From the NCBI GenBank assembly GCA_965221165.1, contig CBDCRP010000003.1, positions 672,001 through 736,000 of the forward strand: a DNA stretch of 64,000 bases, written 5' to 3'. Made by a program: the position numbers and the translations under genes. Each line of letters opens with the position of its first letter. The stretch's first letter is position 1. Source of the stretch: a bacterium. Lineage in GTDB: Bacteria > UBA8248. Positions 190-49,022 of the stretch are shown in pieces. The notes beneath the pieces are model-generated. The model saw only the letters and a program-made list of their open reading frames with translations. It did not search any database and was not told where the DNA came from.

Positions 190-849
190 TTATCTCGCCT
201 TGATTCCGTATTTCTCGTACTTCTTCGCCGAGGAGGAGCTGCGCTTGGCGGATTCGGGCGTCTTGAGTTCCAGCAGATAGGGCCGCTCGGCGGAGGTGGC
301 CTTCACGGCGTCCAGCAGTCCCCCCTCATCCCCCTCGTTTTCCCAGTCGCCTTCTTCGAGCTTCACGAAAACGGGCTTGCCCTCGCCGAAATCAAGGGTG
401 GGAACGCCGAAAATGCCTTGTTCCGCCGCGTCCTCATGCTCTTGCGCGATGAGGGGAACCGTGGCGCCGCTCTTCATGTCCTCCTCCCAGCGCTCGACGT
501 CCAGGCCTACCTCCACGGCGATGTCGCGCAGGACCAGTTCGCTGGTGATGTCCTTGCCGTCCCGGTGCTTCGCCCGGTGCAGCGCCACGTGGTACTTGTC
601 GAACTGGGTCTCGCCCTGTAAGGCCGCGCACTTGGCCGCCTGATGCGGGGGAAGATCCCTGCTCGGGAAGGCCTTATCCTCCCAGGCCTTCCAGTCCTCG
701 CCCCGCGCCGGGCCGAAATTCGCCTGCTCCAGCACGAAGGCCTTGTAATCCACTTTCAGATCGCTTCTTTTCTCCTGAAGGCGAACGAGCCACTCCATGG
801 CCCTGTAGGCGTAGGGTCAGACGTAGCAGTTCCACATGGTGACGTTCAT
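190..849 (-). CDS. DsbA/FrnE-like thioredoxin-fold protein, probable selenoprotein (UGA 817-819)
   Basis: AGGAGG SD and ATG at 849; MNVTMWNCYV-UGA-PYAYRAMEW continues in frame into ORF 190..798; GIFGVPT cis-Pro motif. Confidence 0.85.
787..803 (-). promoter_or_regulatory. candidate SECIS hairpin
   Basis: GGGCCA-UGGAG-UGGCUC, loop starts 20 nt after the UGA. Confidence 0.55.
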
Positions 850-956
850 GGTTTCCTCCTTAAAATGCGCCATAACGAAACATAATTTCGGCATCATACA
901 CCACACGAACAAAGATGAGAACACAGAGCGAAGCCTCATGAAACAGCCGTTTTACG

Positions 957-1556
957 CTAATTTCGAGGCTCCAGCGCCTTGTTCAGCAACGCTCCCGCGC
1001 CCGCATTCAAGGGAATCTCCCTGGCGATCTCCTGTCCGCGCGCGGACATTTTCGCCCACGTTTTCCGCAAAATACCGACGATTTTCTCCTCGTCATGAAG
1101 CCGGGAAAAATCCCAGAAATAGCTCTCCAAAAACACCAGGCAGGCGACATCCTCCAGCGTTTGGGTTTCAGGGTCGGACTTCAAACCTTGTTTTCTCAAC
1201 AACATCCGCACCCGGGTTATCGTTTCCTCGTCATAACCCACCTTTTCGAGAATCTCGGCAACTTTTTCCCCATGATAGTCGTAAAGACGGGTCCGCCATT
1301 GGTGATAGCCCTTGCGATCCAGAGGATAATCCGAGCGTGGAATCTCCCACCTGCATATATGCTGGCTGCGAACCGCCAGACGCAGGGCTTCAGAGGCTTG
1401 CGGTTCTATGGTTTCGAGCCACTTCGTCATTCTCATCGAGTATAAAAGCTCTTTGGGATAATCCTCGCCCTCGAAACTCTCGGTATTCGGATCCTGAGAA
1501 TTCGCTCCATCGATACAACGCAACGCATCTTCAAAACGTGTGAATTTTTCACTCAT
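957..1556 (-). CDS. DUF4202 family protein
   Basis: IDxANxxDPN, HICRWEIPRxDYP, LEDVACLVFL, KTWAKMS motifs; start re-picked at MSEKF. Confidence 0.8.
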   Translation of the reverse strand: MSEKFTRFEDALRCIDGANSQDPNTESFEGEDYPKELLYSMRMTKWLETIEPQASEALRLAVRSQHICRWEIPRSDYPLDRKGYHQWRTRLYDYHGEKVAEILEKVGYDEETITRVRMLLRKQGLKSDPETQTLEDVACLVFLESYFWDFSRLHDEEKIVGILRKTWAKMSARGQEIAREIPLNAGAGALLNKALEPRN

Positions 1557-1636
1557 CGCTTTTACCTTCTTGGTGGTGATAGATATCAACAGCATCATTC
1601 TAAGCAAAACGGCATTAGAATAAACTCCTCTTTGGG

Positions 1637-1665
1637 TTGACAAAAATGAGGAACAGGAATATTTT
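1637..1665 (+). promoter_or_regulatory. sigma70-type promoter of the cobA-reductase operon
   Basis: TTGACA-17 nt-TATTTT in an AT-rich divergent intergenic region. Confidence 0.6.
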
Positions 1666-1673
1666 CCAAGAAA

Positions 1674-1692
1674 GTTAAGTAATTTACTTAAC
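1674..1692. promoter_or_regulatory. palindromic operator candidate
   Basis: Perfect inverted repeat GTTAAGTAA-T-TTACTTAAC just downstream of the -10. Confidence 0.6.
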
Positions 1693-1731
1693 AATAAAAA
1701 GAAAAAATTACACTTCATACAGGAATCTCTC

Positions 1732-2541: not shown

Positions 2542-2609
2542 ATACCGGGTCTCGGCCTGGCTCCAAATTCATTATCCGATATTTGCATAGTTGTTCATGT
2601 GAGGAGCAT

Positions 2610-15964: not shown

Positions 15965-17656
15965 ATGGCGGAGCAGAAGACAATGTTGAACCGATTTAGC
16001 CGGCGTATCACCCAGCCGCCTTCCCAGGCCGCTTCTCAGGCAATGCTCTATGGTGCGGGGCTGGATGAAATAGACATGAAAAATCCCCAGGTCGGCATCG
16101 CCAGCATGTGGTGGGAAGGAAATTCCTGCAATTTTCACCTCAATCGGCTCGCTGAATACATCAAACAAAGCGTGAATGCCGATAAAAAAATGGTCGGTCT
16201 TATTTTCAACACGATCGGGGTGAGTGATGGCATATCCATGGGCACGGAGGGCATGAAATACTCCTTGCAATCCCGAGACCTCATCGCCGATTCGATTGAA
16301 ACCGTCGTTGGCGCGCAATGGTACGACGCCCTGGTCACGCTTCCTGGATGCGACAAGAATATGCCCGGCTCCATCATCGCTATGGCGCGACTCGATCGGC
16401 CCAGCCTGATGGTCTATGGCGGCACCATCAGCCCCGGGTTCCTCAATGGGGACAAGCTGGATGTGGTTTCCGCCTTCCAGGCGTATGGAGAATATTTCTC
16501 CGATAAAATTGACGAAGAGCGCTTTCAGTCGGTTATCCGGCATGCCTGCCCGAGCGGCGGTGCTTGCGGGGGCATGTACACGGCGAACACGATGTCTTCA
16601 TCCATCGAAACGCTGGGCATGAGCCTGCCATACAGCGCATCGAATCCCGCTATGAGCGAGGACAAGAAAAACGAGTGTCTCGATGTGGGAAAAGCCATTT
16701 ATCATTTGCTCGAGAACGACATCAAGCCCAGTGACATCATAACAAGAGAAGCATTCGAGAATGCGATTACCATCATCATGGCGCTCGGTGGCTCCACCAA
16801 CGCCGTCATGCACTACATCGCCATCGCCAAGGCCGTCGGGGTCGAACTCACCATTGACGATTTTCAGGAAATCAGCGACAGAACACCTTACATCGCGGAT
16901 TTGAAACCCAGCGGAAAATTCGTCATGGAAGACTTGCACGATGTGGGTGGCGTGCCGGGCGTTCAAAAAATTTTACTGAAAGAAGGCCTGCTCCACGGTG
17001 ATTGCCTTACCGTCACGGGCAAGACGCTTGGCGAGAATATCGAAGCCTTACCCGATCTCCATGCAGGTCAAAAAATCATCGTGCCGCTTTCATCCCCCAT
17101 CAAGAAAACAGGACACCTCCAAATCCTCTACGGCAATCTCGCGAGCGAGGGCGCCGTCGCCAAGATCACGGGAAAAGAAGGGGAGCGTTTCGAGGGTCCC
17201 GCGCGTTGTTTCGACTCCGAAGAGGATGCCCTCAAAGGATTGGAAGAAAAGAAAATTCAAAAAGGGGATGTCGTCATTATTCGTTATGAAGGCCCCAAGG
17301 GCGGCCCCGGTATGCGGGAGATGCTCACGGTTACATCCGCTATCATGGGGGCCGGCCTCGGGAACGACCTGGCCCTCATCACGGACGGCAGATTCTCGGG
17401 CGGCACCCATGGTTTTGTTGTGGGGCACGTCACGCCCGAAGCACAAACCGGCGGCCTCCTCGCTCTCATTGAAGACGATGACACCGTTTTGATTGACGCC
17501 CAAAACCGCATCATGGAACTCAAGGTGCCCGAGGACGAGATAGAAAGGCGGCAAAAGAATTGGAGCGCGCCCCCGCTTAAATTCACCAAGGGTACGCTCT
17601 ACAAATATGCCAAATGCGTATCTTCCGCATCCGAGGGGTGCGTGACGGACGAATAA
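15965..17656 (+). CDS. ilvD: dihydroxy-acid dehydratase
   Basis: [45 protein letters not shown]. Confidence 0.95.
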
Positions 17657-17660
17657 CGAT

Positions 17661-17708
17661 TCATCATGAAAAAGGGGGAGCAAACAACTCCCCCCTTTTT
17701 CATGATGA
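17661..17708. terminator. bidirectional intrinsic terminator
   Basis: Long near-perfect inverted repeat TCATCATGAAAAAGGGGGAG...CTCCCCCCTTTTTCATGATGA between convergent genes. Confidence 0.8.
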
Positions 17709-17728
17709 CAATGCAAATCTAGAATATA

Positions 17729-18184
17729 TTATTTCTTTTTTCTTTGGTTGGCAAATTCTTCAAAATATCCCCCGATGGAGGAAGCCGCCCAGTCAAAACC
17801 AATCTCCTGGGCTTTTAGCAGCACTTCGTCTCCGCTCAGGTCTTCTTCTTCGGCCAAATGAACAAGCGAGCAAATCCCGGCTCGCCCCACACCTTTTCAG
17901 TGGACGAATACGGGGCCATCTTTTCTGGCCTCATGGAGCGCTTCATGGATTTCTTCCGATAACGCATCGTCCATATTCGAGGCGCTTACGGGAATATGGA
18001 CGAAATTCATCCCTAACTCTTCCGCCGCTTTTCTCTCCGCCTCGGGTGGTAGCTCAGGCTCTTCCTCATCGGCAAAACGCAAATTCACCAGGGTTTTTAT
18101 CCCCTTGTTCACCAGGGATGCCATATCCTTCCGACCCGGCTGGCTCCCGAACGCCAGGTTTTCAGTCAACTCAAAATAGTTCAT
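17729..18184 (-). CDS. DUF442/Blh-like phosphatase-fold sulfurtransferase, probable selenoprotein (UGA 17897-17899)
   Basis: GSQP, TLVNLR..EE, HIPV, GPVFVH-UGA-KGVGRA matches the H-C-x4-R loop; frame stays open to TAA at 17729 just before the terminator (151 aa). Confidence 0.85.
17864..17887 (-). promoter_or_regulatory. candidate SECIS hairpin
   Basis: GGGCGAGC-CGGGAUUU-GCUCGCUU, loop starts 18 nt after the UGA. Confidence 0.6.
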
Positions 18185-18208
18185 GCCGTTTTTCCTTGTG
18201 TGATGGCC

Positions 18209-19051
18209 TTATCCCCGCTGCACCAGTTCCCGGCACCGAAGCAAGCAGGTTACTATTTCATTCTCCCCATCGCGCTTGTAAATTCCAAGCAAATTATTGA
18301 GCATTCTCTCCACGATACGCCGAGGAGGGGTTTCCTGTAAAAATCGCATGTCGAAATGATATCCCAGCCCCCTCACAATTGCAGCGCAATCGCCCACGCT
18401 CAAACGTTTCCCCCTATCGAAGGGGTCCAAAAATACAGGTTCCGCATCACCTTGGTATTTGACGATAAAATGCCCCGGCATCCCGACTCCGTGAAACGGA
18501 AGTCCCAATCGCCTGGCGAGAATCAAATACAAGGCGGAAAGTGATATGGGAATGCCCCGCCTGCGCTCCAACACACGATTCATAAAACTGTTCTGCGCAT
18601 CATAGTAATTATCCCGAGCGCCATCGAACTGAAGATCTCCGTGTAGATATTCCACGACTTCGGCGACAATCGCGTCGGCTGCACTCATACCCTCCAGGCG
18701 TTCACGCAAATGATTTTCCATTCTCAACAATTCGTCTTTTTTGATCTCCATGTCTTCGAGGGGGTGGCCGAAGGACGCCAACAAGAAACACGCATCTTCC
18801 AAATCCACATCTCTTATCGAAGAAAGAGACCAATCCGAAAAAGCGATTTCGATTTGCCCGTAATGGAAATCCCTAAGCGATGGCGGCAACATCACCCCCT
18901 TCGCTTGACGCTTTTTCAACATCCACAAGAGTCTCTTCTGTTCCTCAGTCGAGAATCCGGAAACCTGGCGGTCCAAAGCCGTCGTCACATTTGCCGAACC
19001 ATCACCCAGCAAATGACAAACGGCCTCTAGTTGAGAGTCGCTTAATGACAA
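18209..19051 (-). CDS. SirB1-like transglutaminase-like domain protein
   Basis: YYDAQNSFMNRVLERRRGIPISL, GVGMPGHF, DPFDRG, RMLNNL. Confidence 0.85.
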   Translation of the reverse strand: MSLSDSQLEAVCHLLGDGSANVTTALDRQVSGFSTEEQKRLLWMLKKRQAKGVMLPPSLRDFHYGQIEIAFSDWSLSSIRDVDLEDACFLLASFGHPLEDMEIKKDELLRMENHLRERLEGMSAADAIVAEVVEYLHGDLQFDGARDNYYDAQNSFMNRVLERRRGIPISLSALYLILARRLGLPFHGVGMPGHFIVKYQGDAEPVFLDPFDRGKRLSVGDCAAIVRGLGYHFDMRFLQETPPRRIVERMLNNLLGIYKRDGENEIVTCLLRCRELVQRG

Positions 19052-19156
19052 AATGGCACCCCTTGTTTCAGCGGTCGTCCTTCACTGGCCCTGCCCTCGG
19101 AGTATGGTATTATGATTCGAACATATCCACAATTTGCTATCGCCGGGAGGAGTCAC

Positions 19157-20782
19157 ATGCCCACTTACACCGATGTGGTGGCGGATGTTCTTCAAAACGC
19201 GGGCATTGAATTCGTTTTCGGGGTTCCGGGAAGTTTGAGTTCCGTCGAACTCATCGAAGCCGCCAGAAAGCGCGACATGCGCTACATCCTCTGTAGCAAC
19301 GAGAGCAGCGCAGCCGTGAAGGCGGGGACATATGGCATCATGACGGGACGGCCGGGGGTCGTGAGCACGGGGGTCGGCCCAGGGGCAGCCGCCGTCCTTC
19401 ATGGCGTGGCGAACAATTATCTCGAACGCGCCCCATGTCTCATTTTGACCGACCGCTTTTCCGATGAGCAGTTTCGCCGCCAAGGCCGACAAAGGCTCGA
19501 CCAGGATCGTCTGTTGCGCCCTATTACGAAAGGCACTTTCAAGCTCGCGAAAGACAACGCCGCGACAGCCATAAGACGCGCACTGGCTTTGGCCACAGAG
19601 GGAAGACCGGGCCCCGTGCATGTGGACCTCCCGTACGACGTCATGCTCGCGAGCGCCGAAGAAAGCGATTTCCCGCCCAGGGAGAAACCGCAAAAATATA
19701 TAGGGCGCATCGGGTCGGCCCACCCGGGCATCCGCGCAACCATCACCGCGATTTCAGAGTCGAAAAACCCGGCAGTGATAGCTGGCCTTCAGGTAAACAG
19801 ATCGGGACGAGAAGCGGAAGAAGAATTCATCTCTTTCGCCGAGAAACTCGGAGCCCCAGTATTCGCCGCACCGTCGGCGAAGGGTGTATTGCCGGAAAAT
19901 CACCCCCTCGCCATGGGAACCTTCAGAGGCGCGCCCTCCGAGCGGGAACTGATAGACAAATCAGACCTGTTCATTTTGGTGGGCTTCGACACGGTGGAAG
20001 TATTCGCCCCCGGGCATTGGAACTATCCCCAAAAAGTGATCAATCTGGATGAAGTGCCGCATCTCGATGATTTGATTCGGCCGGAAATAGAAGTGGTCGC
20101 CGATCTCGCCGATATCCTGAGAGAGTTGAGCGTCTCCGTCTCCGCCAACCATGCCTGGAACACCGAGGAGATGGATTCTTATAAAAAAATGAGACAATCC
20201 GCGTTATTTCCCACCGGAGAAGGATTGATGCCCGGCGCCGTCATTCGGATTGCCCGGGAATGTCTCCCCGACAACGGCATCATGACCGCCGATGCAGGAA
20301 GCCATAAAGTCCTGGCCAACGACATTTGGGAGACGAGACGTCCTTTGGGTTATCTGACCTCCAGCGGGCTGGGTTCGATGGCGGTCGCCATACCGGCTGC
20401 CATGGCCGCCAAATTAACGGAACCAGACGCGCCTGTTGTCTGCCTTACGGGGGATGGTGGTTTTCTCATGCGCATTGGCGACATGGAAGTCGCCGTTCGC
20501 GAAAATATCCCCTTCGTCGTCGTCGTATTTAACGACCGCTATCTGAATCTGATCAAAATCAAACAGGACAACCGATCTTTCCCGCGCTTTGGCACCGAGT
20601 TTCGTGATTCCGATTATTCATCCGTCTCGAAAGGATTGGGCTGTGAGGGCGAAAGAGTTTCCACAGGAGAGGAGTTGAAAGATGCGCTCAACCGGGCATT
20701 TTTGTCCGATAAACCCTGGGTGATAGACGCAGTCATCAATCCCGATGGCTATGTGGGTTCAAAAGATGTCCGCGCAGAATAA
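19157..20782 (+). CDS. thiamine pyrophosphate-binding enzyme (acetolactate synthase-like)
   Basis: VFGVPG, GRPGPVHVDLP, GDGG..FND TPP motif; GGAGGAG SD. Confidence 0.85.
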   Translation: MPTYTDVVADVLQNAGIEFVFGVPGSLSSVELIEAARKRDMRYILCSNESSAAVKAGTYGIMTGRPGVVSTGVGPGAAAVLHGVANNYLERAPCLILTDRFSDEQFRRQGRQRLDQDRLLRPITKGTFKLAKDNAATAIRRALALATEGRPGPVHVDLPYDVMLASAEESDFPPREKPQKYIGRIGSAHPGIRATITAISESKNPAVIAGLQVNRSGREAEEEFISFAEKLGAPVFAAPSAKGVLPENHPLAMGTFRGAPSERELIDKSDLFILVGFDTVEVFAPGHWNYPQKVINLDEVPHLDDLIRPEIEVVADLADILRELSVSVSANHAWNTEEMDSYKKMRQSALFPTGEGLMPGAVIRIARECLPDNGIMTADAGSHKVLANDIWETRRPLGYLTSSGLGSMAVAIPAAMAAKLTEPDAPVVCLTGDGGFLMRIGDMEVAVRENIPFVVVVFNDRYLNLIKIKQDNRSFPRFGTEFRDSDYSSVSKGLGCEGERVSTGEELKDALNRAFLSDKPWVIDAVINPDGYVGSKDVRAE

Positions 20783-20946
20783 TGAGAATTTTTTGCTTGA
20801 CACGAACCTCTCAACAAAGCATCTTATACGATATCTTGTGTAACCAGATGGGGAGAATTTAGATTTCCCTGTGAACAGACGTCCAGGCAGGGTCTGGGCA
20901 TGATATCCTCGACCCTATAAGGGGTCTCCGCGCGGGAGGATTGTAA

Positions 20947-21153
20947 GTGCCAGAGGGAACAGTAAAGTGGTTTAGCGACAAAAAGGGGTATGGTTTTATT
21001 TCTCGGGAAGATGGCGACGACATCTTCGTTCACTTTTCAGCGATCGTTGCAGATGGATTTAAATCACTGAAAGAAGGTGAAAAGGTTACATTCGAGGTCA
21101 CTCAAGGTCCCAAAGGACTTCAGGCTGCGAATGTAGCAAAACAAGAAGAGTAA
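20947..21153 (+). CDS. cold-shock protein
   Basis: [31 protein letters not shown]. Confidence 0.95.
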
Positions 21154-21191
21154 TTTCCCTCCCGCTATCGCATCTTATTATCGGGGGCAAG

Positions 21192-22547
21192 CTACGCGCC
21201 GGCCCTGATATGCTCCAGGACCGTCTCTGCGGCTTTGTCCCCGCTTCTCACCGCACCCTCTACGGTGGCCGGTAGACCTGTGCGCGTCCAATCTCCAGCC
21301 AAAAAGAAGCCCTCTACAGGCGTTCGGGTATCCATCCGGGAGCTTTGTTCGGCCACCCCATTCGCCCAGGTAGCCGCACGCTCTCGCACCATTACGATAT
21401 CTCGAATACGGTTACGGGGAATTATGCGGCTCAGGCAATCTCTTGCAGAAGATTCTATGGTCGACCGAGCCCTGGATGCGATGGAATCCTCGGCCCCGGC
21501 CAATAGACACACCAGATTTTCCCCCCTTTCTCCAACAACATCAGGGCGAAACAGCCAATCCCAGTCTTCATCCAAAATAGCTTCGAAACGAGGTCCCTCA
21601 TCCGGTTCTTCGAGCCAACAATATGCGCTGGCGATAGGCCCCGGGCATAGTTTCCCCAGATTCGAAAAGGGTGTTTGTCCATTGAGTTCCCGACCCAACA
21701 ATCTAGCCAGAACGTCAGGCGGCACGGCAGATATAACTGCGCCTGCTCGTAAAATCTCACGCTTTCTCACAAGCACACCGTTTATTTTTGAATTTTTGAC
21801 ATCAAAACCAAGCGCGGGCTCCTGAAGTCTCACCTCTCCGCCTAGACGCTGGATGCTTTGCGCCGCTCTATTCGCCCACAGCGTACTCAGAGCCTTCATC
21901 GGTACGCCCAGGGCAGCTCCTTTCGGGCCATGGGCGAAGGCTTCGCGGATCACCGCCTGGAACAACTCCGCACTTCCCTGCTCCAAAGGCAAATTTAATA
22001 CCGCGCGCGCAAACGGCTCCCAAAACCAACGCACCGCCTCATCCTTCTGGCCAAGGCGCTTAAGCATTTCACGCATGGATTCATTCGGGTGCTCATTATT
22101 CGATTTTGAAATGATCTTTGAAAGACCTTTCAGAAGACTCACTTTCTCCAAAAAGCCAGGCCCTCGCCACCTGAGCAAACCCCGGAGTTGCGCAAAAACC
22201 CCTCCACCCTCCGGAAACAACAATTTCGTCCGTCTGAATGAATCCATTTCGCGAATACGGTAGCTCACCTGCAAGGAAGGAGAGAAGAAAACATCATCTG
22301 CGGCGCCCACCCTTGCCAGCAGAGAGCGAAGCGCCGGATTCGCCGCCATAAACAAATGCGGACCCCAGTCCAACTCCAAACCCGTGGGTGCGTGCATGAA
22401 ACTACGCGCCCGGCCCCCGAGAAGCTTCCCCGCCTCGAGCACCACCACTCCGATGCCCGACTCGGCAAGGCGCAAGGCGGCGGACAGGCCTGCGGCGCCG
22501 GCTCCGACGATGATAACCGGCCGTTCGGGCCCGAGAGGTGCAGGCAT
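21192..22547 (-). CDS. hpnE: hydroxysqualene dehydroxylase
   Basis: GAGAAGL, GGRARSF, ERAAT, LAGDWTRTGLPATVEGAVRSG; follows hpnC/D. Confidence 0.85.
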   Translation of the reverse strand: MPAPLGPERPVIIVGAGAAGLSAALRLAESGIGVVVLEAGKLLGGRARSFMHAPTGLELDWGPHLFMAANPALRSLLARVGAADDVFFSPSLQVSYRIREMDSFRRTKLLFPEGGGVFAQLRGLLRWRGPGFLEKVSLLKGLSKIISKSNNEHPNESMREMLKRLGQKDEAVRWFWEPFARAVLNLPLEQGSAELFQAVIREAFAHGPKGAALGVPMKALSTLWANRAAQSIQRLGGEVRLQEPALGFDVKNSKINGVLVRKREILRAGAVISAVPPDVLARLLGRELNGQTPFSNLGKLCPGPIASAYCWLEEPDEGPRFEAILDEDWDWLFRPDVVGERGENLVCLLAGAEDSIASRARSTIESSARDCLSRIIPRNRIRDIVMVRERAATWANGVAEQSSRMDTRTPVEGFFLAGDWTRTGLPATVEGAVRSGDKAAETVLEHIRAGA

Positions 22548-24707
22548 TTATGATTCCAGAAAACAGCGGAGCGCTTCTTGTAGTTTTTCCCTGGACTTCA
22601 ATGAAGGCCGATAATTCATGTGCCGAAAATGATTCTCATCCATTTCACTTAGAAGCCTCCTGTAAATTCGGCCCATGATTCTGGCAGGAAGAAGGTTCTC
22701 TTTTTTCTCATGACGCAACGCCTCATTCGCCCGCTCGTAATATCCACGCGCCCGTTGCGCCAGAAGCCGAAGAAGACTCAAAACCTGAGAAGTATCTTTT
22801 TTGTCTCTCAGATCGGAGGCTGTTACACCATATTTTTCCATTTCGCTTTGCGGAATATAGAAACGGCCCTGTTCCGCATCCTCCCAAACATCTCTTAAAA
22901 TATTCGTCATCTGAAGCGCTCTTCCCAAACAAACGGCATAGTCTTTCGCAAATTCCGATTTCACGCCGAAGATGCCCAGGCACGCCAGCCCGACCGCAGA
23001 AGCCACCTTGTCGCAATAGTTTTCAAGCTCTGAGAAATCTTCGAATCGACTCTCCTCCAAATCCATCGCCACGCCGTCACAAATCGTCCGGAAATGCTCT
23101 GGCGGCAAGTCATATTTTCCCGCCGCCCACGCGAGTTCCCCAATTATCGGATGGGATGGACTCTCCTCGCACAAATGAGCCAGCGCCTCTTTCCATTCGC
23201 GCAACGAGTTTTTTTTGCCGGGTATCTCGCCCGGCTCATCGGCGATATCGTCGGCCATGCGGCAATACGCATAAACCGCTGTAATAGCGCGCCTTTTCTC
23301 CGCAGGCAGGCTGAAAAAAGACAGATAAAAATTCGACTTGCTCGCGCGAATAAACCAGCGGCAATATGCGCGGTTCAACTCTTCTTCCGCACGCCGATCC
23401 ACGCTGGATTCGAGTCGATAGACCGGACGAAACGCAGCGAGCAACGACCTGGCTTTATCCCAAGCATTCAAAATCGGAGAGCCTGAGCAAACGTTCCACT
23501 TCTCGTGGGAAATCGAGTCCAGTGCTGCAACGCCACCTCTCCAAATCGCACGAAGTTCACGACCCAATGCGCCGCGGGTCCGGTACAGGAGCGGCAAACC
23601 TCGTCTGAAGAGACGCTTCGTCCTTTTTATCTGAAAAACAAGAAACGCGCGCAGTTGAGGCGTCGCAACGTCCGCGATCAAATCAGCCTCGGATAAGGCG
23701 AATCTTTTCATTTCATCCTGAGGCATGTAGACGATGCCTCGTTCGGCATCTTCTTTTACATCTTGTAAATGATTCGCAATCTGCAAGGCCGTGCATATAG
23801 CATCCGAAGAACGGAGGGCTTCCTCATCACGTATCCCGTGCAACATGAGAACTATCCGCCCAACCGGGTTCGCCGATCGGCGGCAATAATCGAGCAAAGT
23901 TTCGTAGTCTGGATACCGGACAACCGTGACGTCTTGCCGGAATGCCGAGAGTAGATCCTGAAAAGGCTGCAAGGGCAAATCAAATTGCTGAATCGTGTGA
24001 GACAGCGCCATGAAAACGTCCGTTTCCGCGACTCCCTTCCGGGCCAACACGAGCTTTTCTTCCCATTCATCGAGGCGGGCGAGGCGCTCATGGGCGGGAC
24101 TGGTCGTATCCGCGATGTCATCAGCGCCTCTGGCGAACGCGTATACCGCGGCGACATGCGGCCTTATCTTCGCCGGCAGCAATTTCGAGGCGACGGGGAA
24201 ATTCTCGTAGTGGCCCGCTACGATTTTCATGCACACATCATAAGCGGCGCTTACATCATGCTCAGAAATGTTTTTTGTCTCTTTACCCAAATCTCGTATT
24301 TCCTCGCCCTTTATGAGAGATTCTATCAATCGCGCATCCGCAGGCAAGAAATCAAAATCCCCCAAAGAGGAAGGATGCACCCATTCATGCCTGCTCACCC
24401 CTAAATTCTTCGCCACCCCGCTTTCCCATTTACAACCATAAAAACGAAGGTGAACACTTCTATCGGGATAACGATGCCGGGTCTCCCAATGAAGACGACC
24501 AACGCGCACTTCGATCCCAAGTTCCTCGCAAATTTCCCGGTGTAAGGCATCCTGGGGATTTTCGCCACACTCTATTTTACCGCCCGGAAATTCCCAGAGA
24601 CCCGGCATGTGTCCGCCCGCCGGACGCCGGCAGATGAGAATACGCCCCTCATTCCAAATAATTCCGGCGACGACGCTTAGCTCTAGAGCAGGAGCTTCAT
24701 CTTTCAT
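22548..24707 (-). CDS. NUDIX (MutT/NudG-like) - HpnC - HpnD fusion
   Basis: WEFPGGK..REICEELG Nudix box; HYENFPVAS and ADDIAD (HpnC); SNFYLSF, ADDIADE, TNILRDV (HpnD); one 719-aa ORF. Confidence 0.85.
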   Translation of the reverse strand: MKDEAPALELSVVAGIIWNEGRILICRRPAGGHMPGLWEFPGGKIECGENPQDALHREICEELGIEVRVGRLHWETRHRYPDRSVHLRFYGCKWESGVAKNLGVSRHEWVHPSSLGDFDFLPADARLIESLIKGEEIRDLGKETKNISEHDVSAAYDVCMKIVAGHYENFPVASKLLPAKIRPHVAAVYAFARGADDIADTTSPAHERLARLDEWEEKLVLARKGVAETDVFMALSHTIQQFDLPLQPFQDLLSAFRQDVTVVRYPDYETLLDYCRRSANPVGRIVLMLHGIRDEEALRSSDAICTALQIANHLQDVKEDAERGIVYMPQDEMKRFALSEADLIADVATPQLRAFLVFQIKRTKRLFRRGLPLLYRTRGALGRELRAIWRGGVAALDSISHEKWNVCSGSPILNAWDKARSLLAAFRPVYRLESSVDRRAEEELNRAYCRWFIRASKSNFYLSFFSLPAEKRRAITAVYAYCRMADDIADEPGEIPGKKNSLREWKEALAHLCEESPSHPIIGELAWAAGKYDLPPEHFRTICDGVAMDLEESRFEDFSELENYCDKVASAVGLACLGIFGVKSEFAKDYAVCLGRALQMTNILRDVWEDAEQGRFYIPQSEMEKYGVTASDLRDKKDTSQVLSLLRLLAQRARGYYERANEALRHEKKENLLPARIMGRIYRRLLSEMDENHFRHMNYRPSLKSREKLQEALRCFLES

Positions 24708-25520: not shown

Positions 25521-25669
25521 TTGCGACACCACAGAAACGGCGGCGAATACACCCTCAGTGCGTCGACTTTCCCGGTCCAAATCCCCAAAAACATTTCATT
25601 TCGCTGACAAAAAATGTAACAACCACCACTGCGACAAACAAGAGAAAAACGAGTAAATGTAGCATCTAC

Positions 25670-25697
25670 TTGAACAAACGTGTGCAAAACACATAAT
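25670..25697 (+). promoter_or_regulatory. sigma70-type promoter upstream of metX
   Basis: TTGAAC-16 nt-CATAAT. Confidence 0.45.
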
Positions 25698-25753
25698 TTT
25701 GCTACAAGTCAGTATATATTCTGATCCTGGAAATAAGGAAATCGCGCCAAATC

Positions 25754-27190
25754 ATGAGTCAAAAAAATTCTCCGCAGGACCCCGGTTCGGTCGGCCTTGC
25801 GAAAACACATACGATTACCCTTCCCGAGCCGTTCCAGACCGATTCGGGCGAAACATTGCCCGAAATCCATGTTGCCTACGAGACATACGGAGAACTCTCC
25901 CCGAGTGGTGATAACGCGGTTTTGGTTATCCACGCTCTAACGGGCGATGCGCATGCAGCCGGCTTTCACAGCCTCGATGATCCGCGCCCGGGCTGGTGGG
26001 ACCCGATGATCGGCCCCGGTAAGGCCATCGACACCCGAAAATACTTTGTCGTCTCCTCCAACAACCTGGGGGGATGCTCGGGATCTACCGGACCCACTTC
26101 CATCAATCCCGCCACGGGACACGCTTATAATATCGGCTTTCCCGTCGTCACGGTGGAGGACACGGTACGGGTCCATAAATTGCTTCTTGAGCGTTTGGGC
26201 GTAAAGCGCCTCAAAACGGTTATCGGCGGTTCGCTCGCAGGGATGCAAACCCTGGAATGGGGCTTGCGCTACAGCGACTTCTGCGACTCCGTCATACCGG
26301 TCGCAGGAGCTACACGCTTGGACCCGATGGGAATCGCCTGGGACAAAATCGCCCGCAGGGCCATCATGGCGGACGGCGGTTGGGAAAACGGCGACTACGC
26401 CGCAGGCAAAGGCCCACGCAAGGGCCTGAGCGCGGCGCGCATGCTGGCCCACATTACCTACCTGAGCAAGGGAATCATGTGGGAGAAATTCGGCCGCGAG
26501 ATTCGAGATAAAGACAAAATGCTGGACGATATCGCCTCCCGGTTCGAAGTGGAGAGCTACCTCGATCACCAGGGAGACAAATTCGTCGAGCGTTTCGACG
26601 CGAATTCGTATTTGTATATATCCCGCATGATGGATCTATATGACGCCTCCTTGGGTTTCGAGAGCCTCGAAGCGTCCTTATCCCGACTCAAGACCAAATG
26701 TATGCTCGTATGCTTCATATCCGATTGGCTCTTCCCGCCGGAGAGAAGCATGGAGATTGCCCAGATTCTCCAAAAACGAGAGCAGGAAGTAGAGTTGCAC
26801 ACGGTGGAATCCACCTACGGGCACGATGCCTTCCTGGTTCAATACGATAAACTCACCGAGATCGTCGGTGGTTTTCTGGCCAGACTCGAACGTGGCGGCC
26901 CTATCGGCATCAACGCGACTCCCATACCTCGGGGGTGCAACCGGCTCGTCCTCTCCATACCGGGTCATTGTGTAAACAAACCTATTTTGTGGGAACTCGG
27001 CAAAAAATACTCGTTTTCCATCAACATCATGAGAAGCGAGATAGATGCCCAATCAGGGTGGCAGGTATGTGAATTCGATGGAAACGAGGAAGAAATCGTA
27101 CAAGCGGTGGCAGAACTCCGAAATATGGGGATCTGGGTCGACCCCGGGGGGCATGACGCCATCGACCACGACCGTGCCGAAGTGGTATAA
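25754..27190 (+). CDS. metX: homoserine O-acetyltransferase with C-terminal NIL domain
   Basis: HALTGD, GWWD, GSTGP, GGSLAG, RFDANSY, YGHDAFL; extra domain of about 80 aa with PILWEL..INIMRSEI..GW. Confidence 0.88.
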   Translation: MSQKNSPQDPGSVGLAKTHTITLPEPFQTDSGETLPEIHVAYETYGELSPSGDNAVLVIHALTGDAHAAGFHSLDDPRPGWWDPMIGPGKAIDTRKYFVVSSNNLGGCSGSTGPTSINPATGHAYNIGFPVVTVEDTVRVHKLLLERLGVKRLKTVIGGSLAGMQTLEWGLRYSDFCDSVIPVAGATRLDPMGIAWDKIARRAIMADGGWENGDYAAGKGPRKGLSAARMLAHITYLSKGIMWEKFGREIRDKDKMLDDIASRFEVESYLDHQGDKFVERFDANSYLYISRMMDLYDASLGFESLEASLSRLKTKCMLVCFISDWLFPPERSMEIAQILQKREQEVELHTVESTYGHDAFLVQYDKLTEIVGGFLARLERGGPIGINATPIPRGCNRLVLSIPGHCVNKPILWELGKKYSFSINIMRSEIDAQSGWQVCEFDGNEEEIVQAVAELRNMGIWVDPGGHDAIDHDRAEVV

Positions 27191-27259
27191 ATCGAAAATT
27201 GCGGCGATACATTCACCGGCATTCAAAAGATCCATTAAAAACAAGACGGAGGCAACGCC

Positions 27260-27892
27260 ATGGGTGAGTTGAAAGAACCGATTGTTGTGGTGAAATACTC
27301 GGATTACACCTGACCATTTTGCTATGTCGCCACCGTTGGTGGCACGCCTGTGATTGAAGAAGACCCCGACGTGGTCGTCGAGTGGGTCAGCTGGGAGGGA
27401 AGACCCCCGGGGCGGGAGTTCGCCGGCTACTCTCCGGAGCAGAAAAAAGAAAGTTACGAGACGAACCACAAACCTCTCGCCGATAAGTATGGCGTACCCA
27501 TCAGGGTCGCGGGAGACGACTACCGCACCACCAACCTCCACATGGCCACCTATTACGCCCGGGACAAGGGGAAATTCAAGGAATTTCGGAATCGCTGCTA
27601 CAAGGCCCGCTGGGTGGAGAACCTGAGCCTGGAGGATTTGGACGTCATCGCCAAACTCGGCGAGGATGTCGGCCTCGACGGAGAGGAAATCAAAGCCGTC
27701 ATCGCCGAGAAACGCTACATCGGCGCGCTGCACAGCCAGCGCGCCCAGGGAAAAGGTCTGGGTATTTACGGAATCCCCACATTCGTGGTGGAGGGAAAAC
27801 TGTTTTGGGGTATAGACGTTATCGATGACGTCAAGGACGAGGTTGCCCGCGTGAAGCAGGAACGGCTCGAAAAGGAAAAAGAAGAGAGCTGA
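27260..27892 (+). CDS. DsbA/HCCA-isomerase-like protein, probable selenoprotein (UGA 27311-27313)
   Basis: GGAGG SD; MGELKEPIVVVKYSDYT-UGA-PFCYV (UxxC) in frame with ORF 27350..27892; GIYGIPTF, LFWG. Confidence 0.9.
27326..27345 (+). promoter_or_regulatory. candidate SECIS hairpin
   Basis: GU(C)GCCACC-GUU-GGUGGCAC, loop starts 22 nt after the UGA. Confidence 0.6.
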
Positions 27893-27934
27893 ACCTGCTC
27901 ACCGGCGGTTCCGCTCCGCCCATACGAATGAATG

Positions 27935-27966
27935 AAACACCCTGCTCGGTGAGCAGGGTGTTTTTT
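27935..27966 (+). terminator. intrinsic terminator
   Basis: AAACACCCTGCTC-GGT-GAGCAGGGTGTTT followed by a T run. Confidence 0.8.
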
Positions 27967-28042
27967 CTCCTGCCTTTTTGCCCTTTCACTCCCGATTCGA
28001 TAAGCTGGAAGTTCTCTATCCACCATATGAGGAGAGAATCCG

Positions 28043-29635: not shown

Positions 29636-29636
29636 A

Positions 29637-45070: not shown

Positions 45071-45754
45071 TCATCCCGTCGCTCTCGTAAGAATCTCGCG
45101 GTAACCCTGGTACACCGCCTCCCCGTAGGCGGGCGGGGCGTGCACTTCGGTGAGCTTTCCGCCTTCTATCGTCTTATCCGACGCGTATGGGTTGAAGACG
45201 GCCTCTCCATCCGGGAAGATGAGGGTGGGACTCGTCATCGGCAGACCCTCCTCGTCCCTTAAGCGCATGGCTTCCCTGTAATCGTCCATTACCCCTTCTT
45301 CAAATACGCCCGATTCCAGGTCCGCGCCCACCCTGGAGCCATCGAGACCCGCCTCTTCTGCGATCTCGCAAAGAACCGAAACCTCATCCACGCGTCTGCC
45401 CTCATAAAAAAAACCGCGCCTGAGCTTCAAATCATAGACGCGCGCCTTTACCGGGTCTTGCGCGTATGCGCTCGCGTAGGCCTGAAAGGCAAGCATCGTG
45501 GTTCTCAGGTATTCTTCGTGCGGCCAGCTTCGACACGGCGAGAGCGGCTCCTGAACCGCCACCAGGGGCCATTCCTGATCCACGATGTAGCGAGGCGCAG
45601 GCCGGTCGTTGATGACTTCCAGCGGGAACGCGCGCCACTTGAGATGCAGTTTGCCCTCGAAATCCGGCATCACCCTGTCCAGCCGCGCCGCGGCCAGGTA
45701 TGCCCAGGGTCAATGGTATTCATGAAAAATCTCGACAACCGCCATGTTCGTCAT
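45071..45754 (-). CDS. DsbA/FrnE-like protein, probable selenoprotein (UGA 45710-45712)
   Basis: GAGG SD; MTNMAVVEIFHEYH-UGA-PWAYLAAARL in frame with ORF 45071..45673; WRAFPLE, SPTL. Confidence 0.85.
45679..45697 (-). promoter_or_regulatory. candidate SECIS hairpin
   Basis: CUGGCCGC-GGC-GCGGCUGG, loop starts 21 nt after the UGA; lower helix CCCUG/CAGGG. Confidence 0.6.
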
Positions 45755-45933: not shown

Positions 45934-46350
45934 ATGAACCCTGAGAACGAAACGATCGCCTGCATTCTGTCTGCCGCCGAGACCATCGCCGTGGTGGGTC
46001 TTTCGGACGATCCCTCGCGCGCGAGCCACCGAATCGCCGCCTATCTCAAGGAAGCGGGCTACCGGGTCATTCCGGTAAACCCCAGAATCGAATCCGCCTT
46101 GGGAGAAAAAGCCTATCCGCGTCTGGGAGACGTCCAAGAGCACATAGACATCGTCAACGCCTTCAGGCGCTCCGAGCAAATCCCCTCCCTGGTGGATGAG
46201 GCTATCCAAAACCGCCCGCGCGCGTTCTGGATGCAAAGGGGCATCGCCCATCCCGCCTCCGCGCGCCGCCTGGAGGATGCGGGCATCACGGCGATTCAAG
46301 ACCTCTGCATCAAGACCGTCCACCGGGAACTCGCGCAAACCCCTCGATGA
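45934..46350 (+). CDS. CoA-binding protein (YccU-like)
   Basis: IAVVGLS, VIPVNP, WMQxGI, DLCI. Confidence 0.9.
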   Translation: MNPENETIACILSAAETIAVVGLSDDPSRASHRIAAYLKEAGYRVIPVNPRIESALGEKAYPRLGDVQEHIDIVNAFRRSEQIPSLVDEAIQNRPRAFWMQRGIAHPASARRLEDAGITAIQDLCIKTVHRELAQTPR

Positions 46351-46420
46351 GAACGGGCCGCTGGCATTCTCCCAAAAACTCCATCGCTACCTGCTCCTCG
46401 GCGCAGGTGTGCTGATAGTT

Positions 46421-47194
46421 ATGGGGATCTTTGGCCTTTTGGAGAATTTCCTGCTCTATCATCCCTACCGGGAAATCGAGCAAACGCCCAAAACCTACGG
46501 CGTCGCTTACGAGAACGTCTCCTTCAGCGCCGCAGACGGCGTGCGCCTGCACGGCTGGTACGTCGCGCCGAAGACCCCGGACGGCCCGGTTCTCCTGTGG
46601 GCGCACGGCAACGCCGGCAACCTCTCCCACCGCGCGGAGAACATCGCGCTCATTCAAGTGCAGTTGGGGGCCGGCGTCTTCATCTTCGACTACCGGGGGT
46701 ACGGGAAAAGCGAGGGCAGGCCGAGCGAGGAGGGTCTCTACGCAGACGGCAGGGCCGCTTACGCCTGGCTCGTGAAACGCATACCTCACGAGCGCGTTTT
46801 TCTGTTCGGGCGCTCCCTGGGCGCGGCCGTGATGGTCAAGCTCGCCGTGGAGGGAAAAAAAGCGCGCGGCCTCATACTGGAGAGCCCCTTCGAGAGCACC
46901 CTCGCCATGGGGAAGAAGATGTTTCCCTTCCTGCCGGTGGGCTGGTTCATCTCCGCAAAATTCGACAGCGCGGCCATGCTCCCGGAAGTGGAGATGCCCT
47001 TGCTCGTTCTGCACGGCGATGTGGACGGCATAGTGCCCCACGCGCAGGGAAGGCGGCTCTACGAGGCGGCGCGCACGCCTTATAAACGCTTTTTCACCAT
47101 CAAGGGCGCGGGCCACAACGACACGTATTTCACGGGGGGCGCCGCCTACTGGGCGGCATGGCGGGATTTTCTGAAAGATCCTGAATCAAGATGA
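46421..47194 (+). CDS. alpha/beta hydrolase (ABHD13/YfhR-like)
   Basis: HGNAGN, DYRGYGKS, GRSLG, HG..D, AGHND; start uncertain. Confidence 0.85.
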   Translation: MGIFGLLENFLLYHPYREIEQTPKTYGVAYENVSFSAADGVRLHGWYVAPKTPDGPVLLWAHGNAGNLSHRAENIALIQVQLGAGVFIFDYRGYGKSEGRPSEEGLYADGRAAYAWLVKRIPHERVFLFGRSLGAAVMVKLAVEGKKARGLILESPFESTLAMGKKMFPFLPVGWFISAKFDSAAMLPEVEMPLLVLHGDVDGIVPHAQGRRLYEAARTPYKRFFTIKGAGHNDTYFTGGAAYWAAWRDFLKDPESR

Positions 47195-48013
47195 ACCGGA
47201 AGTCGGCTCCCTTCTCCTGCCCCGGCGTCTCGCGCGAAACTCCCGCAGCAGCCTCTCATGGTGTACGCTCGTGAAGAAACTCTCGACGAATGCGTTCACC
47301 GGGCGGTTGATGAGGTTCTCCGGCGTATCGACCTGAACAATTACGCCATCGCGCATCACGGCGATCCTGTCTGCGATTTGAAACGCATCCGTCAAATCAT
47401 GCGTCACCAGCAGGCTGATCGCCCCGATCTCATCATGCACCCTTCTCAACTCTTTGCGGACCTCGAGCCTGGCGACCGGATCGATATTCGCCAAAGGCTC
47501 ATCGAGAAGAAAAACGCGAGGCGGTATCGCGATGGCGCGGCCAATCGCGACTTTCTGCTGCTGGCCCGCGCTCAGGCTGTCCGGGCGGCGGCGGGACCAT
47601 TTTTTACTGATCCCCAGACGCCGCATCACATCCTGCGCTCGCTCGTTCAGGATGCCCGGCAGCCATCGGCGGATTTTGAGCGCGAAACTCAGGTTCGAGT
47701 ATTTTTTTTCATCGAAAACCTTCATGTGCGGCCACAGCGCGTAGCTCTGGAACACGAGTTGCACCCCGCGCCGGCCGGGCGGGATGCCGTTCAGTCGCAC
47801 GCCGTCCAAGTAGATATGGCCCGCATCCTCATCCTCCACGCCGGCTATCAAGCGCAACAGGGTCGATTTCCCGCAACCCGTGGGCCCGACGAGCACCATG
47901 AATTCCCCCTCTTCGAGCGCAAGGGAAAGATTATCGACCGCGCACACGTCGTCAAAATCTTTTTTGAGTCCCGTAATCGTCAGACGGCTCATGCTTCTCT
48001 CCGGCCCGTTCAT
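47186..48013 (-). CDS. ABC transporter ATP-binding protein (MalK/PotA-like)
   Basis: GPTGCGKST, LSAGQQQ, LLDEP, VTHD. Confidence 0.9.
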   Translation of the reverse strand: MNGPERSMSRLTITGLKKDFDDVCAVDNLSLALEEGEFMVLVGPTGCGKSTLLRLIAGVEDEDAGHIYLDGVRLNGIPPGRRGVQLVFQSYALWPHMKVFDEKKYSNLSFALKIRRWLPGILNERAQDVMRRLGISKKWSRRRPDSLSAGQQQKVAIGRAIAIPPRVFLLDEPLANIDPVARLEVRKELRRVHDEIGAISLLVTHDLTDAFQIADRIAVMRDGVIVQVDTPENLINRPVNAFVESFFTSVHHERLLREFRARRRGRRREPTSGSS

Positions 48014-48366
48014 TCCCCAGGCGCTAGTTCGTTCAGCGCCTCCATACCCGGCGTGAATATCTCCTCCAGAACGAGCGGCCCATCGCCCGCGTTGCTTGTG
48101 GCGTGCTCCTGGTTGGGCGGAAAAACCACGACGCCGCCCGGCCCGAGCACCACCTCCCGTCCGGCGCACCCGAACCTCGCGCGTCCTTCGAGAACAATCG
48201 TCATCTGCTCGTTGGGATGCGAATGGGGGTTGTATATGTCCACACCGGCGCGAATCGTCTGGCGAAGCACGGTAAGCTTCTCACCCGCCACCACGCGCTG
48301 AATCCTCTCTCCGGTATCGTGCGCTTCCATCTCCTCGAAATGGTAGTATTTCACTCTCTTCTCCAT
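48010..48366 (-). CDS. cupin domain protein
   Basis: HSHPNEQ, PPNQEH. Confidence 0.85.
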   Translation of the reverse strand: MEKRVKYYHFEEMEAHDTGERIQRVVAGEKLTVLRQTIRAGVDIYNPHSHPNEQMTIVLEGRARFGCAGREVVLGPGGVVVFPPNQEHATSNAGDGPLVLEEIFTPGMEALNELAPGE

Positions 48367-48500
48367 CTGAATGGATGAAACTTTACAGAAAAATTAAGTT
48401 CGGGCCGGAGAACCAACCGATTCATCGTATAGAAGTATTTGCATCCGCTCAATCGTTCTCCTAAAGTGTTTGCAGGCCGCTTAACCGTATGGAGACCGTC

Positions 48501-49022
48501 ATGAAGCGAACCCCTATTTACATCGCCGCCATCGTCTTTCTCGCCGTGTTCTGGACGTTTTATCAGGCAGGCGCATCGGGGCTCGGACCCGGCGCGCGCG
48601 CGCCCGAGCTCAAAGGCGGGCCCTGGCTGGGCGGCGAACCACTGAAACTCTCGGAATTACGCGGCAAGGTCGTGTTGCTCGACATGTGGACGTTCGCCTG
48701 AATCAATTGCGTGCGGGAGATCCCCACGCTGCGCTCGTGGCACGAGCGATATGAGGACAAGGGGCTGGTCGTCATCGGAAACCACGCGCCCGAGTTCAAC
48801 TTTGACAAGAAAAAAGCGAACGTGGAAGAAGCCATGGCCAAGCTCGGCATCAAATACCGCGTCGTGATGGATAATGAATTCACCAACTGGGACGCCTTTC
48901 AAAATCGCTTCTGGCCGACAAAATACCTGATCGACAAAAAAGGCGTCGTGCGCTTCAAGACGATTGGAGAGGGCAACCACGCGCGCACCGAGGCGATGAT
49001 CATGAAACTGCTCGCCGAATGA
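48501..49022 (+). CDS. exported TlpA/DipZ-like redoxin, probable selenoprotein (UGA 48699-48701)
   Basis: Joins ORFs 48489..48701 and 48711..49022 in one frame: LRGKVVLLDMWTFA-UGA-INCVREIP (UxxC); HAPEF, WPTKYLIDK; N-terminal signal/anchor. Confidence 0.92.
48709..48729 (+). promoter_or_regulatory. candidate SECIS hairpin
   Basis: GCGUG(C)GGG-AGAU-CCCCACGC with bulge, loop starts 17 nt after the UGA. Confidence 0.65.

Follow-up and report, generated by a model that had tools for sequence, protein, structure and literature searches.

Five genes in the 64,000-nucleotide window described here (G000:C3:672001-736000, part of the 3.69-Mb genome, in 3 contigs, of a bacterium of the UBA8248 lineage) are, judging from sequence, very probably intact selenoprotein genes, in each of which an in-frame UGA would be decoded as selenocysteine (Sec, U) by the ordinary bacterial route. 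A TGA codon is found at all five positions reported in the initial annotation; those at 817, 17897 and 45710 are read on the minus strand, those at 27311 and 48699 on the plus strand. The frame is open both upstream and downstream of each TGA, and translation of a locus with U for TGA yields one continuous protein in every case. The predicted genes and their putative Sec codons are listed below; positions are those of the window unless a contig (C2 or C3) is named.

190..849, minus strand: DsbA/FrnE-like selenoprotein gene, 219 aa, Sec at residue 11 (MNVTMWNCYV-U-PYAY), a single Sec with no resolving Cys
817..819, minus strand: in-frame UGA of gene 190-849, Sec codon
17729..18184, minus strand: DUF442/TIGR01244-type P-loop sulfur-transferase-like selenoprotein gene, 151 aa, Sec at residue 96 (GPVFVH-U-KGVGRAG, H-U-X4-R)
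17897..17899, minus strand: in-frame UGA of gene 17729-18184, Sec codon
27260..27892, plus strand: DsbA/FrnE-like selenoprotein gene, 210 aa, Sec at residue 18 (KYSDYT-U-PFCY, UxxC)
27311..27313, plus strand: in-frame UGA of gene 27260-27892, Sec codon
45071..45754, minus strand: DsbA/FrnE-like selenoprotein gene, 227 aa, Sec at residue 15 (IFHEYH-U-PWAY, single Sec)
45710..45712, minus strand: in-frame UGA of gene 45071-45754, Sec codon
48489..49022, plus strand: TlpA/ResA/DipZ-C-like thiol-disulfide oxidoreductase selenoprotein gene, 177 aa, hydrophobic N-terminus, Sec at residue 71 (MWTFA-U-INCV, UxxC)
48699..48701, plus strand: in-frame UGA of gene 48489-49022, Sec codon

In each of the five read-through proteins, one Pfam domain spans the UGA and scores above its curated cut-off. 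The DSBA domain (PF01323, cut-off 25.6 bits) is matched by genes 190-849 (65.2 bits, residues 3-154), 27260-27892 (97.0 bits) and 45071-45754 (47.4 bits), while the product of 48489-49022 matches both AhpC-TSA (50.6 bits, cut-off 26) and Redoxin (42.1 bits, cut-off 26.6). The product of 17729-18184 matches BLH_phosphatase (PF04273, DUF442) at 41.4 bits against a cut-off of 26.1; it reaches 55.1 bits with the NCBIfam model TIGR01244, below the cut-off of 85.85. The four Shine-Dalgarno sequences with an ATG that the initial annotation had described are present, those at sites 817 and 27311 being strong and those at 17897 and 45710 moderate, and at site 48699 a Shine-Dalgarno sequence is found only before the second ATG.

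The decisive evidence for the five predicted genes is the conservation of the UGA in near-full-length orthologues, which come from up to 33 related genomes and reach down to identities of about 37-50%. The read-through proteins were searched in six frames of 40 related genomes, and TGA is retained at site 817 in 33/33 full-length matches, which are spread across the class (49-97% identity), at site 27311 in 40/40 matches (37-95% identity) and at site 45710 in 62/63 matches, the exception being a match that begins at residue 28 and so falls short of Sec residue 15. At site 17897, TGA is found in all 46 matches that cover at least 143 of 150 residues (39-89% identity) and at all 12 orthologue loci where the codon was read. 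This gene has two paralogues per genome and occurs in 24/24 other genomes of the same family; it was not found in 7 genomes from another family of the class. At site 48699, TGA is present in 31 of 33 matches, the TGA forms having 51-93% identity. The two matches without a stop come from out-of-class genomes (45-50% identity) and are presumably Cys forms.

The same comparison bears on whether the TGAs are true stops produced by sequencing or assembly errors or by recent nonsense mutations, which would make the genes pseudogenes. The assembly gives this explanation some ground, since it consists of 3 contigs with 8.47% estimated contamination and large internal duplications, and since it also contains a TGA that no orthologue shares. 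That TGA lies in a crotonase (enoyl-CoA hydratase) gene (C2:1289981-1290706), at the G-x-G-x-x-F-[S/C]-A-G position; the frame is open in 15/15 orthologues, and it was probably a recent nonsense mutation or a fault in the assembly that produced this TGA. Since the crotonase TGA fails the conservation test, the test discriminates. At the five sites, however, the same TGA recurs in independent genomes with the protein conserved on both sides of it, and a stop flanked at such depth by in-frame conserved protein points to neither error nor pseudogene; the explanation is extremely improbable. Of the sequencing runs, 24 were listed and none of those listed contained RNA, which counts neither for nor against expression. 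Logan contigs from four of the runs were compared over 17600-28000, and all four cover the UGAs at 17897 and 27311. Among the 42 of about 1731 differences listed, none falls at 17897-17899 or 27311-27313 and one is a synonymous change at 27310, from which nothing firm follows.

The five UGAs were originally proposed to occupy the position of a catalytic Cys, and coordinates, Pfam domains and alignments agree in placing them there, homologues carrying Cys at the U columns. The U of sites 27311 and 45710 pairs with the first Cys of CPWC in Deinococcus FrnE, and the U of site 817 with the Cys of C-P-Y-A in the DSBA-domain structure PDB 7dk9. The protein of site 48699 aligns with Mycobacterium DipZ in the C-terminal domain of the latter (E 1e-41), where its U falls on the first Cys of C-I-N-C. 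Within the genome itself, paralogues pair U with U or U with C. The three DsbA-like genes differ in the residue three places after U: only 27260-27892 has UxxC (U-P-F-C), while 190-849 has U-P-Y-A and 45071-45754 has U-P-W-A. The U-P-Y/F-A motif is kept in 30/30 orthologues of gene 190-849.

In the DUF442 structure PDB 2f46, as in classical protein tyrosine phosphatases (PTPs), it is the P-loop Cys that pairs with the U of site 17897, and the protein of this site also aligns with the DUF442 structure 3gxg. Among full-length homologues from a library of 1.84 billion proteins, this column holds Cys in 28/30 and Ser in 2/30, while His95 and Arg101 of the read-through protein are invariant in 31 aligned sequences. 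DUF442 proteins, which go by the name of sulfur transferases in NCBIfam, have this motif, H-C-X4-R, as their short loop. A Cys homologue of the Sec protein, P0031, has 48% identity. Another DUF442 relative, the 94-residue database protein P0014, has its first 57 residues fused to the C-terminal 37 with the whole active-site region gone, as the result of either a deletion or an assembly fault in some sample.

Each UGA is followed by a hairpin resembling a selenocysteine insertion sequence (SECIS), with a G within the first two bases of the apical loop at all five sites. Loop positions are counted from the U of UGA.

781..810, minus strand: SECIS-like hairpin of site 817, core GGGCCAU-GGA-GUGGCUC at 787-803, loop GGA starting at +24, -10.7 kcal
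17858..17892, minus strand: SECIS-like hairpin of site 17897, GGGCGAGC-CGGGAUUU-GCUCGCU, loop starting at +21, -12.3 kcal
27329..27343, plus strand: SECIS-like hairpin of site 27311, GCCACC-GUU-GGUGGC, loop starting at +25, -8.9 kcal
45666..45704, minus strand: SECIS-like hairpin of site 45710, core GGCCGC-GGC-GCGGCU, loop starting at +24, -19.2 kcal
48709..48729, plus strand: SECIS-like hairpin of site 48699, GCGUG-C-GGG-AGAU-CCC-CACGC, loop starting at +20, -12.1 kcal

A second hairpin is found at about +33 at site 48699. The G-containing loops had been reported at +17 to +22, which is right if counting begins after the codon and corresponds to +20 to +25 from the U. Under a position-specific criterion, which demands a simple hairpin whose loop begins at +20 to +26, is 3-8 nt long and carries a G as its first or second base, the five sites all have a hairpin of -8.9 kcal or lower, compared with 13% of 400 random sense codons at -8 kcal or lower; 58% of these control codons have no such hairpin at all. 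Among the other candidate Sec sites of the genome, 30/53 reach -8 kcal and 38/53 reach -6 kcal. Two of the hairpins are also conserved. The DUF442 hairpin, GGGCGAGC-CGGGAUUU-GCUCGCU, is nearly invariant in 12 orthologues, and synonymous diversity in the codons that form it (100-107) is 0.118, compared with 0.308 over the whole gene. At site 817, 98.3% of cells are paired over 30 orthologues.

Several observations weigh against the interpretation of the five loci as selenoprotein genes, or at least against parts of it. Over the 60 nt that follow the UGA, raw folding energies (-12.9 to -23.6 kcal at the five sites) are not below those of controls: 1500 random in-frame positions have a mean of -16.8 kcal (standard deviation 5.3), 10-77% of them being as low as the sites, and there is no enrichment relative to 1500 random sense codons or 1500 Cys codons. 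Since the genome is GC-rich, hairpin stability alone is no evidence. The position-specific criterion was fixed after other candidate sites of the genome had been viewed, which somewhat favours the contrast with random codons. In the DUF442 gene, one other window has a lower synonymous diversity than the hairpin. At site 817, the 30 orthologues show no double-sided changes, and 167 of 500 shuffles score as high; the hairpin shows no covariation excess because its bases also encode a conserved R-A-M-E-W-L peptide. A close full-length Cys homologue of the proteins of sites 817 and 45710 was not found in the searches made, so that their pairing with Cys comes from distant structures only (E 2e-13 and 4e-8). 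Finally, that Sec is the residue inserted, that SelB binds the hairpins and what the proteins do biochemically are deduced from sequence. The assignment of the hairpins as putative SECIS elements is well supported by position and conservation, not by covariation.

The machinery for Sec insertion, which the initial annotation had suggested seeking outside the window, is present elsewhere in the genome. The selA (564 bits) and selB (384 bits) genes adjoin each other at C3:1580000-1584211, and selD (330 bits), which has one in-frame TGA of its own, is on C2; all three score above their curated cut-offs. A tRNA-Sec on C2 (Rfam match of 75.9 bits, likewise above the cut-off; called tRNA-SeC with anticodon UCA by ARAGORN) is the only UCA tRNA among the genome's 49 tRNAs. 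This inventory bears on two other ways of reading the UGAs. If UGA were a sense codon throughout, read as Trp or Gly as in tables 4 and 25, in-frame TGAs would be numerous, and 14730 raw candidates do exist, most of them trivial. However, TGA is the stop of 1050 of the 2416 open reading frames (ORFs) of at least 300 aa and therefore is not a general sense codon, no tRNA-Trp or tRNA-Gly has a UCA anticodon, and the recoded positions pair with Cys, not with Trp or Gly. A general reassignment of UGA is thus vanishingly unlikely.

The UGAs might alternatively be read through as Cys or another standard residue, either by a mis-acylated tRNA-Sec or by facultative Cys insertion at low selenium. Sec and Cys at a recoded UGA are indistinguishable by sequence, and the homologues have Cys at these columns, as such a reading would expect. 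However, the genome has a complete route of Sec synthesis, including selA and selD, and its only UCA tRNA has the architecture of tRNA-Sec. Furthermore, the maintenance of UGA and hairpin over deep divergence would be hard to explain if TGC or TGT sufficed. Read-through as a standard residue is accordingly very unlikely.

Standard annotation treats the five genes in another way, and the truncation or splitting of the genes that had been anticipated is borne out in the public collections. With table 11, the DsbA-like genes are called with their N-termini cut (190-798, 27350-27892 and 45071-45673), the DUF442 gene becomes a 95-aa ORF (17897-18184) and a 53-aa ORF (17729-17890), and the TlpA-like gene is divided into 48489-48701 and 48711-49022. 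In a collection of 5.8 billion proteins, the DUF442 gene has 28 matches, all of 84-95 aa, one of which is labelled 'sulfur transferase domain-containing protein [Nitrospinae bacterium]'. Four DUF442 representatives from different 50%-identity clusters end at ...V/I-H, one residue before Sec, and one 53-aa database product begins just after Sec. The proteins of sites 817 and 45710 have 40 and 65 database homologues, respectively; none aligns over more than 92% of the query, and the N-terminal motif is absent in all. These homologues are named 'hypothetical protein' or 'protein-disulfide isomerase-like protein with CxxC motif' and come from metagenome-assembled genomes (MAGs) labelled Nitrospinota or Candidatus Tectomicrobia. 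None of the five proteins reaches the cut-off of any Sec-specific NCBIfam model. The standard calls might nevertheless be right, the short products (the cut DsbA-like proteins, the 95-aa DUF442 fragment and the two TlpA-like half-proteins) being functional as they stand, and it is true that public collections hold the 95-aa and 53-aa pieces as well as N-terminally short DsbA-like proteins of 200-208 aa. However, truncated database entries are predictions, not observations. The short forms have lost the catalytic motif or split one domain, and conservation continues in frame beyond the UGA, which leaves functional short products with an exceedingly small probability.

If the five loci are selenoprotein genes, SelD would provide selenophosphate, with which SelA would convert Ser-tRNA-Sec to Sec-tRNA-Sec, and SelB would bind the hairpin within the coding sequence, the apical loop of which is some 20-25 nt downstream of the U in UGA, and deliver the tRNA to the ribosome. 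In all five proteins, Sec would replace the nucleophilic Cys. The three DsbA/FrnE-like proteins would be cytoplasmic, with Sec at the N-terminal Cys of a CxxC-type motif. The UxxA proteins (sites 817 and 45710) would act as single-selenol enzymes that are resolved by an external thiol, while the UxxC proteins (sites 27311 and 48699) would cycle through an intramolecular selenenyl-sulfide. Because of its hydrophobic N-terminus, the product of site 48699 is predicted to be a membrane-anchored TlpA/DipZ-like reductase that acts outside the cytoplasmic membrane. The DUF442 protein may carry sulfane sulfur, or selenium, on its P-loop Sec, with a selenenyl-sulfide or persulfide intermediate like that of persulfide-type transferases. 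The five genes are unlinked, and their number would reflect a genome-wide habit of using Sec for Cys (about 58 genes).

That figure comes from a scan in which the TGAs with an open frame on both sides (14730) were filtered by a six-frame hexamer contest that the flanks had to win, which left 700, and candidates were then compared with all ORFs. The count consists of Pfam-tested representatives plus paralogues that pair U with U, and a frame enters the scan only if it has one UGA and a length of 70 aa or more. The resulting total of about 58 selenoprotein genes is a rough lower bound by criteria particular to this analysis; the Pfam check covers 30 representatives, and 2 of the 58 genes are in diverged duplicated segments. 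A known selenoprotein-family domain extends across U in 22/30 representatives. In one more (GrdB) the model stops one residue before U, and in another a weak GRDB match falls short of U, the case being made by U/U paralogue pairs. Two have a domain spanning U from families not known for Sec (crotonase and CoA-transferase), one is only possible (a LysW-like zinc ribbon) and three were rejected. The most numerous family is CMD/AhpD-like (13 genes), followed by UGSC (7), DSBA (7) and OsmC (4). Deiodinase/Prx-like, AhpC-TSA and rhodanese proteins have 3 genes each, and GrdA, GrdB, GrdB-like and DUF442 proteins have 2 each. Single genes encode TlpA-like, thioredoxin, glutaredoxin-DinB, ArsC, Rdx/SelW, MGMT, DUF3179, DsrE, SelD and CoA-transferase proteins. 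Sec forms make up 7 of the 8 DSBA-domain genes and both DUF442 genes of the genome.

The initial annotation had taken the density of five such genes in 64 kb as a mark of a selenoprotein-rich organism. The genome-wide count, as high as had been expected, upholds this for the organism, not for the window as a special place. Five Sec genes are about five times the mean (58 x 64/3686 = 1.0); when 58 sites are placed at random on 3.69 Mb, however, 53% of 5000 simulations contain a 64-kb span with at least five, and the genome has a second five-gene span at C3:1846763-1910763. A 'selenoprotein island' is rejected on the basis of these random placements together with the unrelated housekeeping neighbours, which include a sulfite/nitrite reductase, IlvD, a thiamine pyrophosphate (TPP) enzyme, a squalene/phytoene synthase, hydrolases and an aldo-keto reductase. 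Examination of 278 raw read-through candidates in the window gave no convincing Sec gene beyond the five. Only one extra candidate, a minus-strand TGA at 56632, has a hairpin; situated upstream of the point where a luciferase-like monooxygenase begins, it was rejected.

Two of the genome's other genes have particular features. Only 25 nt separate the second DUF442 Sec gene (C3:1702789-1703235) from the OsmC-like Sec gene (GF-U-LLTQ) that precedes it, the two forming one apparent operon (C3:1702080-1703235). The hairpin of this DUF442 gene has the same CGGGAUUU loop as the window copy, and the two proteins are only 43% identical. The CoA-transferase-family gene (C2:359280-360155), in which PF01144 extends across the site, has an in-frame TGA at ...LTEHA-U-ASVLAG. 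This TGA is kept in 18/18 orthologue-level matches with 80-91% identity (16 of 18 same-genus genomes, plus G000), while paralogues with 35-54% identity are open, with Cys or His at the U column. A SECIS-like hairpin of -10.0 kcal has its loop at +24. The gene is likely to encode a selenoprotein of a family absent from Table 1 of a 2026 review of prokaryotic selenoproteins (PMC13188914).

The review presents 119 prokaryotic selenoprotein families in tabular form. Its Table 1 contains DsbA-like form 1 (PF01323, UxxC) and a form 2 given only as 'DxxUP', thiol:disulfide interchange, Redoxin and TlpA types (PF13098, PF08534 and cd02966; UxxC or UGC) and rhodanese-like sulfurtransferase forms 1-5 (PF00581); the families of the review also include CMD, UGSC, OsmC, deiodinase-like, MGMT, DUF3179, DsrE, GrdA/B, SelW-like and ArsC (PMC13188914). 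Gene 27260-27892 resembles DsbA-like form 1 as tabulated there, with a DSBA domain, Sec first in U-P-F-C and then a hairpin. Genes 190-849 and 45071-45754 share the domain and the position of Sec with this form, but depart from UxxC in that Ala replaces the resolving Cys. C-P-Y-A is likewise the motif of PDB 7dk9, the closest relative of 190-849 with a solved structure; literature on this structure was found only in a methods preprint. Gene 48489-49022 is similar to the tabulated Redoxin/TlpA-type selenoproteins in that its product is a thioredoxin-fold, membrane-anchored reductase with UxxC. It differs in that its closest solved relative is DipZ and in that it scores 25.9 with the Sec-specific model NF041054, whose cut-off is 300. 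Measured against the review's table, most of the genome's Sec repertoire, including sites 27311 and 48699, is of known kinds.

The product of gene 17729-18184 has its own distinctive features. It shares with the rhodanese selenoproteins of the review a Cys-X4/5-Arg loop that carries sulfur and in which the nucleophile is replaced by Sec, but it belongs to another fold family (PF04273/TIGR01244, with a PTP-like P-loop) and gives no match with the Rhodanese model. The main text of PMC13188914 contains none of the terms DUF442, PF04273, TIGR01244, 'phosphatase', 'sulfur transferase', PF01144 and 'CoA transferase'. A literature search gave no paper on a DUF442 selenoprotein or on TIGR01244 with selenocysteine, although the 111 families of BSepDB may include DUF442, and no relevant paper on a bacterial CoA-transferase selenoprotein with an in-frame UGA. 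The DUF442 selenoprotein and the single-Sec UxxA DsbA-like forms thus appear uncatalogued, as far as the review's table and main text extend, and it is probable that the window contains one new Sec family and that another lies outside it.

In size, the selenoproteome of G000 is comparable with those of the bacteria richest in selenoproteins. The largest bacterial selenoproteomes given in PMC13188914 are those of the Olavius algarvensis Delta 1 symbiont (at least 57) and of a Methylomirabilota MAG (63). The top ten of BSepDB have 46-63 genes and include three UBA8248 MAGs, labelled Nitrospinota/Nitrospinae, with 48-54 (PMC13326102). G000 likewise has dozens of Sec genes of the thiol-oxidoreductase type, its figure of about 58 having been obtained by criteria other than those of BSepDB. 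A broader proposal combines these points: that gene 17729-18184 founds an uncatalogued PTP-fold DUF442 Sec family with two paralogues in each searched genome of the family, that the UxxA DsbA-like and CoA-transferase forms are uncatalogued as well, and that the selenoproteome of the genus, with at least 58 genes in 3.7 Mb, is among the largest and densest and extends beyond the classical thiol-redox folds. Relative to the sources cited, this combined proposal is tentative, with a little less than an even chance of being right in full.

Other features of the window and the genome were observed alongside these genes. The G+C content of the window steps at about 28 kb, from 0.51-0.54 (1-28000) to 0.58-0.62 (28001-64000), with Sec genes on either side. 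The only apparent operon link of the five genes is an overlap between the stop of the TlpA-like Sec gene and the first bases of a cytochrome b561-like gene (49019-50008). Beyond the latter, a tRNA-Pro(GGG) on the minus strand (50482-50558) lies within the 5' part of a long ORF (50300-51112) that has an Oxidored_molyb (MsrP/YedY-like) domain at residues 103-259. Since the tRNA is inside the 5' part of the ORF, the true start of the MsrP/YedY-like gene is probably downstream of it, and the gene probably does not share a transcript with the cytochrome b561-like and TlpA-like Sec genes.

Elsewhere, duplicated, slightly diverged segments are found at C2:637-644 kb and C2:781-788 kb (inverted) and at the starts of C2 and C3. 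U/U pairs that came from large duplicated segments were spurious and were taken out; the counted Sec genes that are duplicated are a DsbA-like gene (C2:33248 and C3:75533) and a rhodanese gene (C2:71258 and C3:37215). A six-fold 'U' repeat at C3:818507-820019, whose evenly spaced TGAs imitate a multi-Sec protein, is antisense to a plus-strand repeat ORF of at least 879 aa (C3:817800-820800) and was set aside as an artefact. TGAs linked to NifU, luciferase and D12-methyltransferase genes are outside the domains and were removed. The LysW-like zinc-ribbon ORF (C3:2103077-2103373) has its TGA at the second Cys of C-P-G-U-G and, with weak Pfam support, is uncounted; it adjoins a glutaredoxin-like U-A-P-C candidate at C3:2102874.

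Those checks suggested in the initial annotation that could be carried out all had a favourable outcome. With a textbook mechanism, and with uncultured lineages rich in selenoproteins recorded before, the claim as a whole is confirmed without being surprising. All five genes, however, are stored publicly only as fragments in which the active site is missing or split, and functional and metabolic inference for the lineage misses a large redox and sulfur-handling toolkit as well as a dependence on selenium. The UxxA DsbA-like forms would be natural single-selenol variants of a dithiol oxidoreductase. The DUF442-type Sec protein, if true, would add a new fold to the Sec enzymes, and together with its Cys homologue P0031 it would form a natural Sec/Cys pair for persulfide transfer.

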